Source: Rotaria magnacalcarata (lineage: Eukaryota). Taken from it: a stretch of 22,354 nt of DNA. The translations under genes and the position numbers were made by a program. The notes beneath the pieces were generated by a model. It did no database searches. It worked only from the letters and a program-made list of their open reading frames with translations, and was not told the DNA's origin. The first letter of the stretch is position 1, and the number at the start of each line of letters is the position of its first letter. This document shows positions 647 through 13,500 of the stretch, in pieces. The DNA is taken from assembly GCA_965140935.1 (NCBI GenBank), contig CBCSLL010001906.1:1-22354 (forward strand), read 5' to 3'.

Positions 647-1642
647 ATGGATGACAGTTCATTTGATTTCAAACGAGAAAATTCAATCGTGTCATCATCT
701 GTGGCACAAACGTCATCTGATGTGGTGACTCGTAAGAAATCAAAGCCAATTAAATGTATGAATATATTCAAGCTTGCACTCGCTGCATTGCCAACTATTG
801 TTTTTGGAGTGTTTACGATTGTCTCCACGTTACAACAGGATGCTGCGGCTAGGGCGGCACGTGACCAAGGTCAAGGACAAGCCGACGAAACGAATCGAAG
901 AATTCTTTTCAAAGAATATATGGATGATATGAGAGATCTTCTTTTGGATGAAAATTTTGAACAAAATATTAACAAGTCTCTTCTACAAATTCGCGTTCAA
1001 ACATTAACAGTTCTAAGAAATCTTGATCCTATCCGTAAACGTGACGTGTTTCTTTTTTTGTATGAAAGTCGTCTGATTCGACACGATATCACACCGAGAA
1101 TTGATATACGTGGGGCGGATTTTAGTGGAATAAAGCTTGTGCAATCATCGACACAAGTCTGCGATCTTCCCTTTCTTTATTTACCGGGAGTAATCGCAGA
1201 AAATGCCACATTCGATGGTTGTACTCTCACATTTGCAGTGTTTGAGAGTGCGTCAATGGTTGGTTCTAAATTTCTGTTGAACGATATTGCACTTACGAAT
1301 TTTCAGAATACCAATTTGAATAAAGCAACATTTCGTGACAACCAAATGTATGAAGCAAAGTTTACGGGCGCTGATCTTAGTCAATCATTCATTGGTGATG
1401 GAGTTTATCAGAATGTGGATTTCACAAATGTTGATTTGTATCAAAGCGTTATTGGAAATTCCTTATTGAATCCACCACCATTTATCGGCTTGAAGCCAGT
1501 AATTTTGCTCAATACTCGCTTACCGGATGGCACGTTCAGTATTATTGATTCACAGAATTTGCTTATGCATGGTCGAGCAGAGACAGAAGTTAGTTTTGTC
1601 AAATATCGCGTTTTGGAGTGTTTTTCATTTCGTTTTTTGTAG
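647..1642 (+). CDS. Intronless 331-aa protein with an N-terminal signal-anchor/TM helix (IFKLALAALPTIVFGVFTIVSTL) and a C-terminal pentapeptide-repeat domain.
   Basis: Uninterrupted ORF from ATG 647 to TAG 1642. Residues ~165-290 show a strict 5-residue periodicity with a central F/L (NATFD GCTLT FAVFE SASMV GSKFL LNDIA LTNFQ NTNLN KATFR ... GADLS QSFIG ... NVDFT NVDLY), typical of the A(D/N)LXX pentapeptide-repeat family. A hydrophobic stretch at aa 40-62 follows a basic RKKSKPIK motif. Confidence 0.55.
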   Translation: MDDSSFDFKRENSIVSSSVAQTSSDVVTRKKSKPIKCMNIFKLALAALPTIVFGVFTIVSTLQQDAAARAARDQGQGQADETNRRILFKEYMDDMRDLLLDENFEQNINKSLLQIRVQTLTVLRNLDPIRKRDVFLFLYESRLIRHDITPRIDIRGADFSGIKLVQSSTQVCDLPFLYLPGVIAENATFDGCTLTFAVFESASMVGSKFLLNDIALTNFQNTNLNKATFRDNQMYEAKFTGADLSQSFIGDGVYQNVDFTNVDLYQSVIGNSLLNPPPFIGLKPVILLNTRLPDGTFSIIDSQNLLMHGRAETEVSFVKYRVLECFSFRFL

Positions 1643-4600
1643 TGTCATCTCAATGTCACGCCATATTGGAAAGAAGTCGTCACTACTGAACCACTAAATA
1701 TTATTCATTTTCAAGCAAGCCTACCAGTGAATATGTCTAAAGTCGAAGACGATTGCTTTTTCAAAATAGATAAAGACATGACCTACTATCAATTTTTGTC
1801 TGTTCAAAACTTCTCTCATTTGATCGATTTAAAACTAGCTATGTTCAATTTACTGGGATGGTTCGGATTGAAAAATCCAAATGACAAAGATTCGTTAACG
1901 ACGACAGTACACTTTTCACAAAATAAAAATTCATTTAATTTTGGAAGTTCAGTATTTAGTAAGTCGTTGCTGGTAAATCTTTCATGATTCACTATTGTTA
2001 TTTTGCTTGTATTTTAAGTTCATGTGAAAAATTTGACATCGTCATTCCATCAACATTCATTGGTTAATATGATCCCACCAATGACAAGATTTATAGCAGT
2101 ATCACTGGGTTGTAATACAGTTGGTACCAACGACCAATTTTGTCTCTTTGATCAAATAACATTATCAGTTTTTAGAAAGATCTCGTAAAGATGATAAGGG
2201 ATTTTTTTGGTAAATACGCATTACGACGCGAATATGTCAATTTTATGTATAACATATTTTTTGAAAACAATAACAATTGAATTGTATCTGCAGAAAGGAG
2301 TTGTCTTTATCGAAATATGTAAACTCATCCTCACAATTTTTGAGAAAATGTTGACATTAACCGGAGAATATACATGCCATTCTCACTCATTAAATACTCA
2401 TTCGAATTATTTGATGTGTACCACCCTGAAAGTAGGTTGTAATCACATAAGGTTTGGCTTATGTTTAAAAGCAATCAGGAAAGAAACATTTAATTAAAGA
2501 GCCTGTTTTTAGCTTTTTCATATTAAGGAGAGAATAGTGCACTAGTTAACCAAAAAGCGGAACAACATAAGACAGAAGTCGAGCATTCGGATGAAGAGCA
2601 ATATTAGGCACCCATTTATCAACAACATATTTTCTTGTCCAGAAATAAATTTTTTCAATAAAGTTGTCAACCAATAAACTGAATAATATTATCGGTATAG
2701 TTTAAGTTTTCGAAATTCATTGTTGATATTGGTTGAGATCGATTGTGGGTGATATCTGATGGCGGTAGAGTTCCACGGGTTGACCGAGGGGTTATAACTC
2801 AGGATAGGAGTTGACCAGCTGTGGGCACTCATCTATTTGAAAGTATCGAGGTTTCTATAGTGTTCTTCTAGGTGCTGCTTCTAAGCACTCTCTAACGATT
2901 GATAGATAGCAGACGATAATCAGTAGGACGATAAAAATAGAAACCATATTGAAAATGTAAACCAATCTCGGAAAATCATCTATTGGCATCGGTAGAGTGG
3001 TCATTGCTATTTGTTCTCTTGGTGATGTAGCTTCGAAGAATATAGCACAATAGTAATTAGATAGTCACATTGATACACCAAGTAGAAAATTGAGGCATTG
3101 CTTTGAAAATAATGTCAATTTATTCACATGTGTATTATAACGTACATAGGTATATGATTATAGATTTATTTCCACATAGTCTAATGATAAAGAGTAATCA
3201 ACTCAATAGAGAATTGGCAAGCAGATAACTAAGAGGTGCTATCTTGTGTCAACTAAGAAATGTGACATTATATTACCTTTTTTGTTTTGATAATCCGATA
3301 AAAATAGGATGAAATCTCGATCTGTTTGCATAATATTTTCTATCGTATTTTAAATCACAAAGTCATATACTCAAGCCAAATATTATTCGTCTATCTTGTT
3401 TCGTTGACTTGTCTTTAAGTGCTACTCGTTCTTGGAACGATATGAAGTTTTTCAAAAGTATATTCTCTCGCCATTGTTATATAACAACGATAAACAACAT
3501 AAGAACAATTCACACTGATAGCCTCTTTTCAAGCTCAAGTGTGATTGAGAGACAGAGTTGATAGTGGAGATAAACATATTATTATTGTATTGTTTTCAAG
3601 GGACGAATGTGACAAGTCTTTGGTGAAATAGCATACTTAGAATTATACTCGCAATAGAGTTGATATTAATCAAATGGACTGTCGGGATTATTTGGTTTAA
3701 GTGTTTTATTAGTGCCAAACATCCACGCGTTAGTTTTGTTTTCACATACACTGATTTGTTGGTGCTCAGGATTAAATTATTTCGCTATGTCAAACTATAA
3801 GATGAATCCATAGCCTTGTATTGGATCTCCTGCTGGATTGGCACTAAACTCAACAAACAAGAATGTTACTACAGAAAGCTGAGAAACATTTTCTACATTC
3901 GTTGATAGCGAGTTTGACAGATATTCGTCGTCTTGAGTGTGTGGAAGTAATCAACATCGGCATGCACATCTTTCTATTGTGAATACGATTCCACAGAAGA
4001 CAAGATTTCTGTTGGATGCGCTTTCTGTAAAACATGAACTACTCTTATTCATAAAAGCAATCCTGTGATATAATCAATAAAACGAATAAAATTCTAATTT
4101 ATTTTCCACTTGCGACAAAAAAAGAAAGCTCTTTTAATAACTCTTGTGGATAAATTTGTTTTTTGTCGAATCGTTCATAATTCCTTCATACGTTGTTCAC
4201 CAATTTTTGACTTGGGTCGCTTTACACGATGTTTTATTCAGCTATTAATCTGAAAAATGACGTCATGAACAGTAATTGTTCCAGAAAATCTCATAAATCT
4301 GTCATCAGAATTTGTATGCAAAATTACATTACAACTTCGGTTTGTACATCGCCAAAATTTTAGTTTTCTTTCGATTAAAATTTAAAAATTGTAAATTATA
4401 ACCATTAACGATTAACACAAATTTTCCTTTATTCGAGTATGTTTTTGTAATAGTTAGTTTAGTTGGACTTGGTTGTCAAAATGAATTTTCAGGTGATTGA
4501 GATGGCGATAAACATTCAGTTTCATCAATAGCTGTCAACTTATTAGATCCCATCAAAAATGTCTTTTTACAATTACGGAAAAATATTACGCAAAACAACG

Positions 4601-5767: not shown

Positions 5768-8650
5768 GTACGTTGATAATTGTTATTCTAAGAAAAGACG
5801 ATGAAAGAAAGTAAAAATTTGGATGTTTTTTTAGGCCCCGTCATTACTGTGTTATTGAATCGCCTGTAGTACGCAATGATGCTGGCGAAGTTATTTTCGA
5901 TAAAAATGGACAAGCCAAACTTGTTCATGCTGACTTGGAAATTCGGCTTTCACAACCTGATCAATCACCTTTTCCTCTCTATCCCGGTGAAATTCTTCGT
6001 CAAGTATAAAGAAACATTCAAAATTTTCTATTGAGAATAAAATAAAACTACTTTTTATGTTTGTTCTATTTTAAAGCCTGTTACTCCATTAAAAGTTGTT
6101 CCTGCTAATTCAGCATTACGCTTAAAGGCTGTCCTAGATTTTCAAGATGAAGCAGCAGATGAACAACGTCGGGCTGGAGATGAATGGTTATATGAAGGAC
6201 CAGCTACTTATATTCCTCGTAAAGAAGTTAGCGTTGAAGAACAAATTCGTGCTACAGTTATCTCGTCTAATCAAGCTATAAGGCTTTGCGCAAAAAAGGA
6301 AATCGTTGATCGTACAGGCCAACGACGTGTTACTGGTGAAGAATGGTTAATTAAAAAGACCGGTGCATATTTACCACTTGCATATGTAAGTGCAAATCTC
6401 GTCGGTATGCGAAATACTAATCTTGTTATTTTTAGGAAACTGTGGTTTCAGTAGAAAATGCTTATGTATTAACCGATAAAAAGGCTCTTCATCTTTGTGC
6501 ATTAAAAACTTTTACAGATAATTTCGGTAAAGAACGTATGAACGGTGAAGAATGGCTTGTAACACTTGCTGACACTGAAACACATATTCTTAGTGTCTAT
6601 GAACAATTAGTTTCTGTTGTTAATGTAGTAACATTAACATCACGTCAATATTGTGTTATAATCGATCCAGTTGCTGACGGAAAACCACAATTAGGGAAAA
6701 AAGCAAGTTTTTATCTCAATGAAATCAGAGAGATTAATTATGTTGATTTCTTTCTTTCGTAGAAACTTGTTGTCGGTGAAAAATCATTCTTTCTTCAACC
6801 CGGTGAAAAACTTCAAAATGGTATTCAAGATGTTTTTATCTTAGGTGAAGATGAAGGTGTTATTCTAAAATGTATCGAAGCATTTAAAGATACACAAGCT
6901 AATGTTAATCGAAATCCCGGCGATCGTTGGATGATTCGTGGTCCAACGTAAGATATTTAATGTCTCTATGAAAGGTCTAAATTAATATTATTCTTGTAAA
7001 TTTTAGTGAATATATACCTCCAACACAAGTTGAAGTTGTGACACGTCGAAAAGCTTTGCCATTAGATGCCAATGAAGGTATCTATGTTCGTGATATCAAA
7101 ACTGGTTGTGTCCGTGCCGTCATTGGCGAAACTTATATGTTAACACAAGATGAAGAATTATGGCAAAAAGAATTGCCTAAGAAAGTTGAAGAATTATTAT
7201 CTCGTGATGCTTTAAGTGAACGAAATGTTCTCACGCGAAGTCAAACATCAGATAAAAATCAATCTCAACAACAAGCAGCAACAACAACAACAAGTTCAAA
7301 CGTAAATGTTGCCAAACGTGATAAATCAAAACTAGTTACCTATCGTGTACCACACAATGCCGCTGTACAAATTTATGATTATAAAGCTAAGAAAGCACGT
7401 ATTATATTCGGCCCTGAACTTGTTATGCTTGGACCCGATGAACATTTTACATTACTTTCATTGAGTGGTAGTGTACCAAAAAAACCAAATCAAATTCAAT
7501 CACTTTGCTTACTTCTTGGACCAGACTTTTTTACTGATGTCATTGTTATTGAAACAGCTGATCATGCTCGTCTTTCACTTCAACTTTCATACAATTGGCA
7601 TTTTGAAATATCAGATATTGAAGACGACAAAGAAGCATCCAAACTGTTTTCTGTACCAGATTTTGTTGGTGATGCAGCTAAAGCTATAGCGTCACGTGTT
7701 CGTGGTGCTGTTGCTGGTACACAATTTGATGATTTTCATAAGAATTCAGCTCAAATTATTCGTACGTCTGTATTTGGTCTTGATGCAAATCAAAAAATAC
7801 GAGAAAACTTTACTTTTCCACAAAACAATCTTGTCATTACATCGATTGATATTCAAAGTGTTGAACCTGTGGATCAACGAACACGAGATGCTCTTCAGAA
7901 GAGTGTTCAATTAGCTATTGAAGTAAGATAAAAGACTATCGATTGAATTGTGATGATTAATTTCCGTGTATGTCTACATTTTAGATTACAACAAATTCAC
8001 AAGAAGCTGCAGCTAAGCATGAAGCTTCGCGTCGAGAACAAGAAGCAAAAGGTTTACTAGAACGTCAACGTATTAAAGATGATGCTGAAGCTGAAGAGGT
8101 TCGAAAACAACTTCTCCTGTTACAAGCTGAATCATCGGCTGTTGAAGTCACAGGGCAAGCTAAAGCCGAAGCACAAAGTCGAGCTGAATCTGCTCTCATT
8201 GAAGGACGAGCATCTGTTGAACAAGGTATAAATATTTTATTTTTCCAATGGAATTCAATAAGTGAATTTTTCTTTTGTTTAGCTCGTCTCAGGGCTGACG
8301 CTGCACGAATTGAAGCCGAAGCTGAAATATCACGCCTACAATTGGCACGCGAAGCTGAAATTAACTATTTACGTGAACAGAATGAATTAGAAATTACTAA
8401 AAAGGCTGAAATGTCACGTATTGAAACCGACAAATTCAAATTACAAGTTGAATCAATCGGTGCATCAACAATACAAGCCATTGCAACTTCAGGTCCAGAT
8501 ACACAAGTTAAACTTTTACAAGCGCTCGGTCTTCAGTCCATGTTGGTTACTGATGGTCATTCACCTATCAATCTAATGGGCTTTGGACAAGGACTTTTAG
8601 GTGGTTTAAATGCAAATACAATTAGCAATGCGGGTGGAGCACCTAATTAA
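5580..8650 (+). CDS. MVP: Major vault protein gene, paralog 1 (gene span). Exon model: join(5580..5767,5835..6003,6077..6385,6436..6702,6763..6947,7007..7922,7985..8225,8283..8650), 2643 nt, 880 aa.
   Basis: The translation matches MVP hallmarks along its whole length. N-terminus: [37 protein letters not shown]. Vault repeats: [46 protein letters not shown]. Shoulder/cap: [84 protein letters not shown] coiled-coil tail follows. All splice junctions keep the frame. Introns are GT-AG except one probable GC-AG, and the gene ends at TAA 8648-8650. Confidence 0.85.
5835..6003 (+). CDS. MVP: MVP1 exon 2 ([56 protein letters not shown]).
   Basis: Acceptor tttttttag|G is at 5834/5835; donor GTATAA is at 6004. 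Confidence 0.6.
6077..6385 (+). CDS. MVP: MVP1 exon 3 (PVTPLKVV...[17 protein letters not shown]).
   Basis: Acceptor ttttaaag|C is at 6076/6077; donor GTAAGT is at 6386. Confidence 0.65.
6436..6702 (+). CDS. MVP: MVP1 exon 4 ([20 protein letters not shown]...[13 protein letters not shown]).
   Basis: Acceptor atttttag|G is at 6435/6436. The exon ends before GCAAGT at 6703. The ORF-track tail [19 protein letters not shown] is intron read-through. Confidence 0.55.
6763..6947 (+). CDS. MVP: MVP1 exon 5 ([30 protein letters not shown]...[13 protein letters not shown], ends in phase 2).
   Basis: Acceptor ttcgtag|A is at 6762/6763; donor GTAAGA is at 6948. The frame continues from exon 4 only if the 60-nt GC-AG intron is removed. 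Confidence 0.55.
7007..7922 (+). CDS. MVP: MVP1 exon 6 ([30 protein letters not shown] ... SVQLAIE), 916 nt.
   Basis: Acceptor aattttag|T is at 7006/7007; donor GTAAGA is at 7923. The ORF-track M at 7038 is a GTG artefact. The exon carries a Q/T-rich low-complexity insert ([24 protein letters not shown]). Confidence 0.7.
7985..8225 (+). CDS. MVP: MVP1 exon 7 ([80 protein letters not shown], ends in phase 1).
   Basis: Acceptor cattttag|A is at 7984/7985; donor GT is at 8226-8227. Confidence 0.65.
8283..8650 (+). CDS. MVP: MVP1 exon 8 ([103 protein letters not shown]...GAPN*).
   Basis: Acceptor tttgtttag|C is at 8282/8283; stop TAA is at 8648-8650. The exon overlaps ORF 8342..8650, whose M is a TTG artefact. 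Confidence 0.65.
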
Positions 8651-10557: not shown

Positions 10558-13500
10558 CTAAATAATGAGAGAGGAAAAAACAAGCAGTTAGTAAAGTGTA
10601 GCACGAATTCTTATTAAGATAAAATCTTACTTGATTATCGGGTCCGCTAGTAGCAATAGCTTGAATAGTTTTTGGACCGATAGCAGCAACATGCTCTTTG
10701 AATTCTGAAATTTCAATATCGGCTAATCGTTTTGCTTTTTCTATTTCTAAATTAGCTGTCGACGTTGAATAATGTAATTCAAGTTGGCGTGCTTGCGTTA
10801 AACGTATAAGTTCAGCATCAGATTCAATCTTTGAAGCTTGTGCACGAAGTGTAGCTGAAAAAGAGAAAAGAGAACATATAATATATATATATATCGATAC
10901 AGATGTTCAATATGCGACATACCTTGATCAACAGCAGCTGCACCTTCGATTTTAGCTGCTTCTGCTCTTGATTGAGCTTCAGCGCGTGATTGACCGGTGG
11001 TTTCAACAGCAGATGACAGTGCTTGAAGTTCTAATAATTTTCGTCGTTCCTTTTCAGCTATAAAAATGAAAAGGTTTACGATTCCAATTTCACATAGAAT
11101 AAAATTCTACCTTCTGCTTCATCAGCAATTTTCTGTCGTTCTAAATGACCCTTTGCTTCTTGTTCTGTGCGTGAAGCTAAATGTCTATAGGAAAAACGAA
11201 GCAAATAAAAATTTGAAGTTCATTTTTTGTTAAACATACTTCGCTTGGGCTTCTTGTGAATTTGTTGTTATCTAAAATGGAGACATGCACGGAAATTAAT
11301 CATCACAATTCGATCGATAATCTTTTATCTTACTTCAATAGCTAATTGAACACTCTTCTGAAGAGCATCTCGTGTTCGTTGATCCACTGGTTCAACACTT
11401 TGAATATCAATCGATGTCAGAACCAAACTATTTTGCGGGAATACTAGTCTTTTTTTCACATGTTTATTTTCATCAAGACCGAATACTGAGCTTCGAATGA
11501 TTTTCGCAGAGTTCTTATGGAAATCATCGAATGAAATACCAGCAACAGTACCACGAATTTTAGCTGCTACAGCTTTACAAAAATCACCAATAAAATCTGG
11601 TACTGAAAAAAGTTTTGTAACTTCTTTTTGATCATTGGAATCATTAACCTAAAATAATAAAAAAAAAACAAAGATTTGCTTTCTTTTCTTTGTAAACTCT
11701 TATAATTCTTACCTCAAAATGCCAGTTATATGAAAGTCTGAGTGAAAGACGAGCATGATCACTTGATTCGATTGTTACAATATCACTTGAAAATTCGGGT
11801 CCCATTAGAAGACAAATAGCTCGAATCTTATTTGGTACTTTGGGTTTTTCACCGGATAAATTCAATATTGTGAATTGCTCATCTGGTCCGAGCATAACAA
11901 GTTCAGGGCCAAATACAATGCGTGCTTTTTTAGATTTGAAGTCATAAATTTGTACACAAGCATTGTGTGGAACTCGATAGGCAACTACTTTCGATTTATC
12001 TCTTGGTGGTATAGCTGTTTTTTGTGCTGATTTATCATCAAAACATCGAGCATCTTGATTGAGAAGTAGTTCAACTTGGGCAGGTAATTCTTTCTCCCAA
12101 AGTTCTTCATTTTCAGTCAATAAATATGTAGTGCCAATGACTGATCGAACTTTACCAGTTTTAACATCTCGAACATAAATACCTTCATTGACATCTAATG
12201 GTGTAGCTCTACGTCGGAGTACTACTTCCGATTCGACAGCTGGAATATAGTCTTTAGGTCCTCGGATCATCCAACGATCACCAGGATTACGTAGGACCGT
12301 CTATAAAAACAATCAATCGGATACAATTGATAAATAAAAATTTCACAAAACCTATTAACTTACTCCATCTTCTTTAAACGATTCAGTACAACGAAGAATG
12401 AGTCCTTCATCGTCTTCAAGAACATAGACATCCTGAATACCTTTAGCTAATTTTTCACCGGGTTGAAGAAAGAATGTTGTTTCTCCCTTTAGAAAATCGA
12501 AAGATTTAAAATTTAAAATTCATATGATTCTAATTTATCATACTTTAACAAGCTTTTTCTTTCCAAGTTGCGGTTTACCATCTGAACCAACAGGATCAAT
12601 AATAACAGCGTATTGACGAGAATTTAATACAGTTACTGCTACAACACCAACAACCTAAATATTTTATTCATTATTTTTCATCTACGAAATAAACATATTT
12701 AATTATATCTACCTCTTCAAAAACATCTGGAATATATGTTTCAGCATCACGGGCATATACAAGCCATTCTTCTCCATTGAGACGTTTATGTTTGAATGAA
12801 TCAATAAATGTGCCCAATGCTCGTAAATGAAGAGCTTTCTGGAAGAAGAAAAAAGGGCAATAAAATAAATATATCATGAAAAAAGACGACTGATTCCTAA
12901 GAACACATACTTTGTCAGTTAGTACATAGGCTTTAACTGTTGAAACAACTTCTTCGTAAGCTAATGGTAAGTATGAGCCAATAGTACGATTAAGCCATTC
13001 TTCGCCTGTTTCGCGTGCAATTCCATCGCGGTCAACCATCTCTTTTTTCGCACGTAAACGAACAGCTTCGTTTGGTTTAAGAATAACAGCTTTTATTTGT
13101 TCTTCAACGCTAACTTCTTTACGTGGAAGATAAGTTCCTAGAAATAAATTTATTCGAAAATGTTTACTATTAAAAAATTTAGAATATTTTTGTTTTGCTA
13201 TTTTACCTGGTCCACAGAAGAGAAATTCATCTCCAGCACGTATCTGTTGATCATTCTCATCGGTAAAATCCAAAACCGCACGAAGGCGTAATGCACAGTT
13301 AGGCTCAATAACTTTCAATGGTGTTACATTCTGTTTGAGTATTTCACCAGGATAGAGTGGAAATGGTTCTTGAGCAAATCGAATATCAACATCCGAATGT
13401 AACAACTTAACTTGACCATTAGAATCAATAACAACTTTCGCATTTTTATCACGAACAGCTGGATTTTCAACAACGCAATAATGACGAGGACTAGATAATT

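Follow-up and report, generated by a model that had tools for sequence, protein, structure and literature searches.

In this study, we describe a gene of the bdelloid rotifer Rotaria magnacalcarata that codes for a membrane-anchored pentapeptide-repeat protein (PRP). It occupies positions 647..2188 on the forward strand of contig CBCSLL010001906.1 (GenBank assembly GCA_965140935.1), of which the whole stretch of 22,354 nucleotides (nt), from here on called the window, was analysed. Our verdict is that the gene is an ancient, domesticated and expanded chimera of bacterial derivation, the product of which is probably a type II surface lectin-like receptor. Taken as a whole, a description that combines a three-exon gene model, chimeric bacterial ancestry and a functional family present throughout the bdelloids seems to us likely to hold. 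Foreign ancestry is in itself no news, since horizontally acquired genes, bacterial ones included, are well documented in bdelloid rotifers (PMC4632278). Less routine is that the homology spans a whole membrane-protein architecture, with a stalk that no Pfam, NCBIfam or PADLOC model covers and that is common to an uncharacterised bacterial family, and that the junction between the modules coincides with a conserved phase-0 intron, which would make this gene a clear example of transferred pieces being recombined after arrival. The predicted architecture, in which a type II anchor bears a beta-helix rod with a lectin-like head, was not found outside the bdelloids and is diversified across all bdelloid genera sampled. 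If the head indeed binds glycans, the family might provide bdelloids with a means of their own to recognise microbes or surfaces. We found no account of it in the literature searched.

Gene structure

The locus had initially been annotated as an intronless gene, on the basis of an ATG..TAG open reading frame (ORF) of 331 amino acids (aa) and 996 bp at 647..1642 on the + strand. The top database match of the ORF product is an annotated R. magnacalcarata protein of 475 aa (P0001; 99% identity), which tracks the ORF as far as ...GRAETE; from there on it reads CHLNVTPYW..., while the ORF has VSFVKYRVLECFSFRFL and stops. Joining 647..1588, 1643..1958 and 2019..2188 restores a protein of 475 aa that differs from P0001 by four mismatches and is identical to the partial protein P0002 along the latter's length; it is the sole canonical splice combination that yields P0001/P0002. 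The gene is therefore organized as follows:

647..1588, + strand: exon 1, residues 1-314, with transmembrane (TM) helix, stalk, repeats, cap and the start of the linker
1589..1642, + strand: intron 1, 54 nt, GT..AG, phase 0
1643..1958, + strand: exon 2, residues 315 to about 419
1959..2018, + strand: intron 2, 60 nt, GT..AG, phase 1
2019..2188, + strand: exon 3, residues 420-475, with the stop codon at 2186..2188

Contrary to the intronless reading, the 647..1642 ORF is exon 1 plus a read-through into intron 1. It ends at 1642 because translation enters the intron, the last three bases of which, TAG, are acceptor and stop codon at once. As such, the contrast that had been drawn with intron-rich neighbouring genes rests on a misread gene model, while the suspicion that the non-repeat tail ...VLECFSFRFL might be spliced was well placed, as this tail is the intron 1 read-through. 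Both introns are shared with the orthologues of Adineta vaga (L030) and A. steineri (L031), where they lie at homologous positions, in the same phases and with lengths of 56-60 nt. In a second R. magnacalcarata assembly (L028, GCA_905273325.1) the locus has an identical span of 1542 bp and is 99.5% identical; the two assemblies differ by six changes, four of them non-synonymous and two synonymous, and are too close for a selection test. Furthermore, many metagenome-derived relatives of ~290-370 aa (e.g. P0005 and P0011) end a few residues past the equivalent of AETE, and these represent the same truncation at intron 1, resulting from prokaryote-style gene calling. In practical terms, such callers truncate the genes of this family at the first intron. 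Both introns of the window copy are multiples of three, and the whole gene lies in one frame; a transcript that kept intron 1 would encode the 331-aa form, without the head.

A pentapeptide-repeat rod on a membrane-anchored stalk

Exon 1 and the start of the linker divide into five parts:

647..757, + strand: N-terminal tail, residues 1-37, predicted to be cytoplasmic, S/T-rich and ending in the basic cluster RKKSKPIK
758..832, + strand: signal-anchor TM helix, residues 38-62, NIFKLALAALPTIVFGVFTIVSTL
833..1096, + strand: non-repeat helical stalk and cap, residues 63-150, with the motif ..Y.DDM..LLL...IRVQTLTVLRNLDP.RK.DV..FLYE..LI.
1097..1546, + strand: pentapeptide-repeat right-handed beta-helix, residues 151-300, 30 pentads, with the Cys pair C172 and C192 and the C-terminal cap NTRLPDG
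1547..1588, + strand: start of the flexible linker, residues 301-314 (..SQNLLMHGRAETE), at the end of exon 1

The sequence of the protein and its predicted fold both mark it as a true PRP. When scored against the Pfam pentapeptide families (PF00805, PF13599 and PF13576), it exceeds the curated cut-offs of all three models: Pentapeptide_4 with 55 bits (cut-off 38), Pentapeptide with 46.5 (20.2) and Pentapeptide_3 with 30.7 (27). A single five-residue register runs unbroken through residues 151-300 and places a hydrophobic residue at the centre of 25 of the 30 pentads, while the four alternative registers do so in 6-10 of 30; by our own reading of the layout, 17 of these 25 centres are F or L. 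This agrees with the array of about 25 units that had been noticed at the outset, which is located not in the C-terminal half but in the middle third of the 475-aa protein. An AlphaFold2 model was built on P0001 (four residues different from the window protein) from a 43-sequence alignment, with a mean predicted local distance difference test score (pLDDT) of 81. It predicts a right-handed quadrilateral beta-helix of about seven turns at residues ~150-300, at a pLDDT of 95-99. The Cys pair C172/C192 within it is conserved across Rotaria and Adineta.

Upstream of the rod, residues 1-35 of the tail have a pLDDT below 50 and are predicted to be disordered. Kyte-Doolittle windows of 19 residues reach 1.6-2.1 at ~38-62 only, indicating a single hydrophobic helix directly after RKKSKPIK, in line with the signal anchor that was initially proposed. 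Five K/R lie within the 15 residues before this helix, and the net charge after it is 0. The model predicts helices at 38-99, where the membrane segment runs into the stalk, and at 108-123 and 128-140, all with a pLDDT above 90. What had been regarded as a charged linker is part of this conserved helical stalk, which is covered by no Pfam family, nor by any NCBIfam or PADLOC model.

Relationship of exon 1 to bacterial membrane proteins

Among the matches of the first search, the weaker ones have lengths of ~300-380 aa and carry canonical ADLSGA repeats. These share with rotifer exon 1 a TM helix containing a Pro, a stalk with the pattern ..Y.D.MS.LL...R..TL.VLR.LD..RK..V..FLYE..LI.., and an (L/M)PDG cap. 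Nine residues are invariant in the rotifer and bacterial sequences (Y91, R116, T119, L120, L123, F137, L138, E140 and L143), and the LPDG caps align (P293, G295); here the bacterial proteins end, whereas the rotifer protein runs for another 180 residues. BLASTP of the exon-1 protein against these relatives is collinear over residues 43-296, with E-values down to 1e-23. Moreover, when the stalk alone is compared by hhalign, bdelloid and bacterial sequences match with a probability of 99.4% (E 6.8e-22, 35% identity), and the relationship is therefore independent of the repeats. These comparisons indicate that exon 1, comprising TM helix, stalk, PRP domain and cap, is homologous to an uncharacterised bacterial family found mostly in Chloroflexota.

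Where does this family occur? A five-sequence stalk alignment, used to scan the bacteria and archaea at one genome per species, returned 24 loci, nearly all in Chloroflexota. They include metagenome-assembled genomes (MAGs) of Chloroflexia, complete 4.8-Mb chromosomes among them, Ktedonobacteraceae with the cultured Ktedonobacter racemifer, Anaerolineae, Roseiflexaceae and Kouleothrix; the others belong to a few Cyanobacteria and Actinomycetota and one Beijerinckiaceae. The neighbours of one bacterial-type relative are another PRP gene and IS200/IS605 genes for TnpA and TnpB, a prokaryotic context. With a profile of the exon-1 module, at least 923 clusters were matched at a threshold of E <= 1e-3. 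Organism names are missing from the 120 that are listed, which are about 100-225 aa long, and we take the clusters to be bacterial from their short size, which resembles that of the shorter bacterial-type members. Neither PADLOC nor NCBIfam provided a named family for the bacterial relatives.

Compared with the membrane PRPs of K. racemifer DSM 44963 and of MAGs from Chloroflexia, Ktedonobacteraceae and Anaerolineae, the rotifer protein has the Pro-containing TM helix, the stalk motifs, the PRP domain and the (L/M)PDG cap in the same order, at 25-31% identity over ~250 residues, rising to 35-48% within the stalk. Where the bacterial proteins have a pair of TM helices, the rotifer protein has a single one, which aligns, conserved Pro included, with the second helix of that pair (WDWLQLL.IPVVLA...). 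The extra N-terminal helix, a W.WTGF loop, canonical A(D/N)LS.A repeats and an MPDGS.HP terminus are found in the bacterial proteins only, which lack cysteines, head and introns and end ~5 residues past PDG.

Could the gene instead be an ancient metazoan or rotifer gene that descended vertically, for example from a luminal PRP of the SV2 type, with low-complexity repeats as its only likeness to bacteria? We consider this scarcely credible. The similarity to bacteria is strongest precisely in the non-repeat stalk and extends collinearly from the TM helix to the C-cap, and no named eukaryote other than bdelloids was returned by the searches that give source names, in which monogonont and other spiralian genomes were not specifically targeted. 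The LD_SV2 model (PF23894) reaches 16.4 bits with the ORF protein and 13.6 with P0001 against a cut-off of 29, scoring below the generic PRP models, and with a stalk homology that is bacterial only, derivation from SV2 was rejected. While the luminal domain of SV2A/B/C, the thylakoid-lumen protein TL15 and Rfr32 are extracytoplasmic PRPs as well, they have neither the stalk module nor a lectin-like head, and SV2 is a 12-TM transporter-like protein.

A lectin-like head of separate bacterial affinity

The pLDDT falls after residue 300, and a low-confidence stretch at 309-352 corresponds to a flexible linker of about 40 residues. Exon 2 encodes linker with a conserved sequon, C-x-x-N-x-T, and the first half of a predicted beta-sandwich (CFF..YQ...FS.LID...A.FN..), the second half of which is encoded by exon 3 (..IPP.TR.I.VSLGC.....QFCLFDQ..LSV). 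Four Cys of this head are conserved across the family, and most members have an N-x-S/T sequon after the first of them. At residues 385-388 (1855-1866) the window copy reads FNLL, while aligned members with Asn at this position carry FNLS or FNFS; a putative glycosylation site thus appears to be lost in the window copy.

The C-terminal 161 residues match no Pfam family at E <= 5 and no PDB sequence at E <= 1. Modelled alone with 36 relatives, the head reaches a pLDDT of 90 and a predicted TM-score (pTM) of 0.84. The best fold match of this model is the FBA domain of FBXO2/FBXO6, followed by the carbohydrate-binding modules (CBMs) CBM16, CBM61, CBM4 and CBM22, a porphyran-binding CBM of the type IX secretion system (T9SS), receptor-binding domains of phage tailspikes and toxins, and MAM domains; Foldseek concurs, with TM-scores of 0.55-0.68. 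The head is accordingly predicted to be a beta-sandwich of the galactose-binding-domain-like, CBM-like or FBA fold, of the disulfide type. Its likeness to the FBA domains of FBXO2 (Fbs1) and FBXO6 (Fbs2), to CBM16, CBM61, CBM4 and CBM22 and to the T9SS CBM is one of predicted fold at 8-14% identity; unlike these proteins, it has no Pfam FBA or CBM match, no F-box, and four conserved Cys of its own. This third domain was missed by the initial annotation, and its presence likely shifts the function from that of a generic PRP to that of a lectin-like surface protein, as far as the modelled fold can tell.

A word-index search with the 161-aa head gave a single R. socialis protein, whereas an exhaustive search with a bdelloid-only profile against 1.84 billion representatives gave 95 relatives and no more. 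Most of these are exon-sized fragments or PRP fusions. Among the remainder are bacterial proteins that carry a Por_Secre_tail or CHU_C sorting domain, a nuclease/phosphatase-type domain or a purple acid phosphatase domain, and a Pseudoalteromonas protein (WP_105169850.1). At a search space of 1.84 billion proteins, these matches are significant. Aligned by hhalign, the bdelloid and bacterial copies of the head match with a probability of 98% (E 2.3e-13, 111 columns), indicating that the head and a domain found in secreted bacterial proteins are homologous. In these proteins the domain is ~115 aa long and repeated, and it shares the core motifs YQ.vDv..YS.LID.G, IP..TR.i.i.l and yFD..l with the rotifer head; it lacks the Cys pairs and the ~45-residue N-terminal extension, and accompanies phosphatase or nuclease domains, never a PRP domain. 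Two further matches, P0127 (zf-PARP repeats) and P0139 (SprB repeats), were judged spurious, being short, repeated, Cys-rich partial matches.

None of these bacterial head proteins contains a PRP domain, and none of the bacterial PRP proteins found contains the head. Since no bacterial protein with both modules was found, the fusion seems to be of the rotifer lineage, or else to stem from an unsampled donor. Intron 1, in phase 0, sits exactly between the bacterial-type module and the added head.

A bdelloid-wide family of old descent

All named proteins with the fused architecture are from bdelloids, with three species of Adineta, four of Rotaria and the genus Didymodactylos represented; among them are R. 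magnacalcarata, R. socialis, R. sp. Silwood1, A. vaga, A. steineri, A. ricciae and Didymodactylos carnosus, and among named sequences the architecture is restricted to this group. D. carnosus represents the deepest known divergence within the bdelloids (PMC7943196). The top 36 matches of the protein are all bdelloid-type; those with names are bdelloid, and the others share bdelloid-type sequence. Top matches in related eukaryotes with the same architecture had been put forward as evidence that would speak against a transfer. As these matches turn out to be of that kind, they rule out a recent or private transfer and leave an ancient one untouched.

In a neighbour-joining (NJ) tree based on 121 columns of TM helix and stalk, all 28 sequences from bdelloids are recovered as a single clade in 98 of 100 bootstraps, and divergence within the bdelloids is as great as the distance between bdelloids and bacteria. 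The phylogeny that was called for at the outset thus recovers the bdelloid clade, and leaves aside, as an unrooted tree, the donor phylum and the nesting of the rotifer sequences. Against a same-species paralogue with 64% identity (L029), dN/dS is 0.30 overall, with the stalk as the most constrained part (0.09), followed by the head (0.32), the PRP domain (0.39) and residues 1-62 (0.44). Together, the tree and the substitution rates point to a monophyletic bdelloid family under purifying selection.

The transfer is old, because Rotaria, Adineta and Didymodactylos all have the family, its composition is host-like (GC content of the coding sequence 0.366, of the window 0.327), and its spliceosomal introns are conserved. 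Both the host-like composition and a transfer that is not recent had been foreseen. Horizontal acquisition, as initially suspected, gains from a bacterial ancestry that is visible in the stalk beyond the repeats and loses the argument from missing introns. The alternative of a lineage-specific family also proved true, and the two readings are compatible, given that this is an expanded, bdelloid-specific family of bacterial origin. Bacterial contamination was rejected: the gene has introns, shares its contig with major-vault-protein (MVP) genes in two assemblies, occurs in several assemblies, and has an orthologue on a 20-Mb A. vaga chromosome, and the MVP linkage and this chromosomal orthologue exclude contamination. 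In its bacterial affinity, host-like composition, short introns, linkage to metazoan genes and presence across genera, the gene resembles other horizontally acquired genes of bdelloids (PMC4632278; PMC7943196). What sets it apart is that two modules, each bacterial-like in its own right, are combined in a chimera, as opposed to the transfer of a single enzyme gene.

Proposed origin, orientation and possible function

We propose that a bacterial membrane PRP gene may have entered the stem lineage of the bdelloids before their deepest known split, where the first of its two TM helices would have been lost and the PRP module would have been joined, across the present phase-0 intron, to a further domain with relatives in bacteria. 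Short introns would then have been gained, and duplication would have expanded the family, in tandem in at least one genome. So on which side of the membrane would the rod and the head reside? We favour a type II orientation, with the N-terminus inside and the C-terminus outside, because basic residues precede the TM helix, the Cys of PRP domain and head are conserved, the linker has a sequon, and the bacterial homologues of the head are secreted. In the bacterial ancestors, the PRP domain was probably cytoplasmic, as the positive-inside rule suggests; if so, loss of the first TM helix would flip the domain across the membrane. In a type II orientation the beta-helix would serve as a stiff spacer, with a glycan-binding head held away from the membrane on a flexible tether, and the product could be a lectin-like receptor or adhesin of the cell surface or the secretory pathway, with glycans of microbes or of the environment as plausible ligands. 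The fold class of the head most often binds carbohydrate, and for glycan binding at the cell surface specifically, going by the modelled fold, we put the chances at slightly short of even.

Conversely, the protein could be oriented the other way, or reside in an internal membrane facing the cytosol. PRP domain and FBA-like head would then be cytoplasmic, as in the bacterial relatives and in FBXO2, and might bind glycans exposed to the cytosol or act as a nucleic-acid or protein mimic, similar to Qnr/MfpA and HalA. We regard this as improbable, given that the basic cluster is located N-terminal to the only TM helix, that conserved Cys pairs and an N-glycosylation sequon after this helix suggest an oxidising compartment, and that the head homologues in bacteria are themselves secreted. 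Mimicry in particular finds no support in the Qnr, MfpA and HalA models, whose scores of 14-26 bits fall far short of the cut-offs of 240-500, or in PADLOC, which returned no match. For the same reason, identity with Qnr/MfpA, which are soluble proteins of about 200 aa without a TM helix, was rejected for a protein that has a TM anchor and extra domains; HalA, the membrane PRP effector of the Hailong anti-phage system (NF051894, PADLOC), was likewise dismissed with a score far below its cut-off.

Several points weigh against a bacterial-derived type II lectin-like receptor and must be taken into account. The absence of the family from monogonont rotifers and other animals consists in searches that did not return them, with no targeted genome search behind it. 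The NJ tree is unrooted and short, and the direction of transfer is read from the distribution of the family and not from the tree. The head has 14% identity or less to every solved structure and could have an unsampled eukaryotic source. The proposed orientation depends on the positive-inside rule, and the disulfides are putative, Cys172-Cys192, Cys315-Cys352 and Cys451-Cys461 being our guess at the pairings. Glycan binding is suggested by the fold, yet this fold class also serves protein binding, as in MAM domains, ephrin receptors and the receptor-binding domains of toxins. The FBA domain is cytosolic in mammals, and the fold thus leaves the orientation open. Lastly, the GC content at third codon positions (GC3) of the gene (647-2185) is 0.31, compared to 0.15-0.21 in exon ORFs of the neighbouring MVP genes (e.g. 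7038-7931 and 11644-12270). This gap could reflect expression-linked codon bias in MVP or a residue of foreign composition, and we draw no conclusion from it; the codon comparison with the MVP genes that the initial annotation advised has produced nothing definite.

A bolder version of the proposed origin would have the family represent a new class of animal surface receptors, assembled from two independently acquired bacterial modules: a Chloroflexota-type PRP module that was flipped outside by loss of a TM helix, and a CBM-like domain of secreted proteins. It would then have become a fast-evolving, partly tandem, bdelloid-wide lectin-like repertoire for non-self recognition or adhesion. We mention this as speculation, and consider it unlikely in its full form.

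Paralogues and the integrity of the window copy

Within the window, the gene is single copy, as no second paralogue was found in its 22,354 nt. On another contig (L032:10001-15919, ENA contig ctg354193, 179 kb), three PRP paralogues are located in tandem within 6 kb; this eukaryotic contig also carries GPCR, NHL and EF-hand genes. The first two of these paralogues are each followed by short ORFs, likely head exons that were split off by the prokaryotic gene caller.

The L029 paralogue (6263-7801, P0003/P0004) has an in-frame stop inside its PRP domain (..GSKFI, the stop, then SDLIH..). In its deposited annotation, an extra 'intron' removes this stop, and the intact exon 3 is swapped for unrelated downstream sequence; a LINE-like reverse transcriptase/endonuclease gene lies directly downstream. 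This paralogue is probably a pseudogene or a mis-annotation, and the invented intron appears to mask the premature stop. Intron 1 of the window copy is 83% identical to that of L029 (45/54), and large parts of intron 2 match too, while synonymous sites between the two copies are only ~57% identical (pS 0.43). These very short introns seem to be more constrained than silent sites, or to have been subject to local gene conversion.

Given that members of this family do decay, as shown by the L029 copy and the annotation that splices around its stop, the window copy might itself be an unexpressed or decaying pseudo-ORF within a family that is functional as a whole. The predominance of non-synonymous changes between the two R. 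magnacalcarata assemblies (4 versus 2) and the lost FNLS sequon would fit such a state. However, none of the three exons is interrupted by a stop, the splice sites of both introns are canonical, the stalk motifs and all seven Cys are preserved, and the dN/dS of 0.30 argues for constraint, with the caveat that the paralogue used for comparison may itself be decaying. We therefore deem decay of the window copy very improbable and continue to regard it as an intact member of the family.

Other features of the window

Searches for Rfam and tRNA features in the window yielded none. A tandem array of GAATCA(C/A)-type units is located at 230-399, ~250 bp upstream of the start codon, in which Tandem Repeats Finder detects periods of 19, 28 and 66, with as many as 8.4 copies and matches of 79-90%. 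Further downstream, segments 7641-8007 and 11249-11627 are inverted relative to each other and 83-84% identical. They correspond to two MVP genes on opposite strands, one of which carries Vault domains in the second R. magnacalcarata assembly (L028), and the arrangement appears to be a diverged inverted MVP duplication beside the PRP gene.

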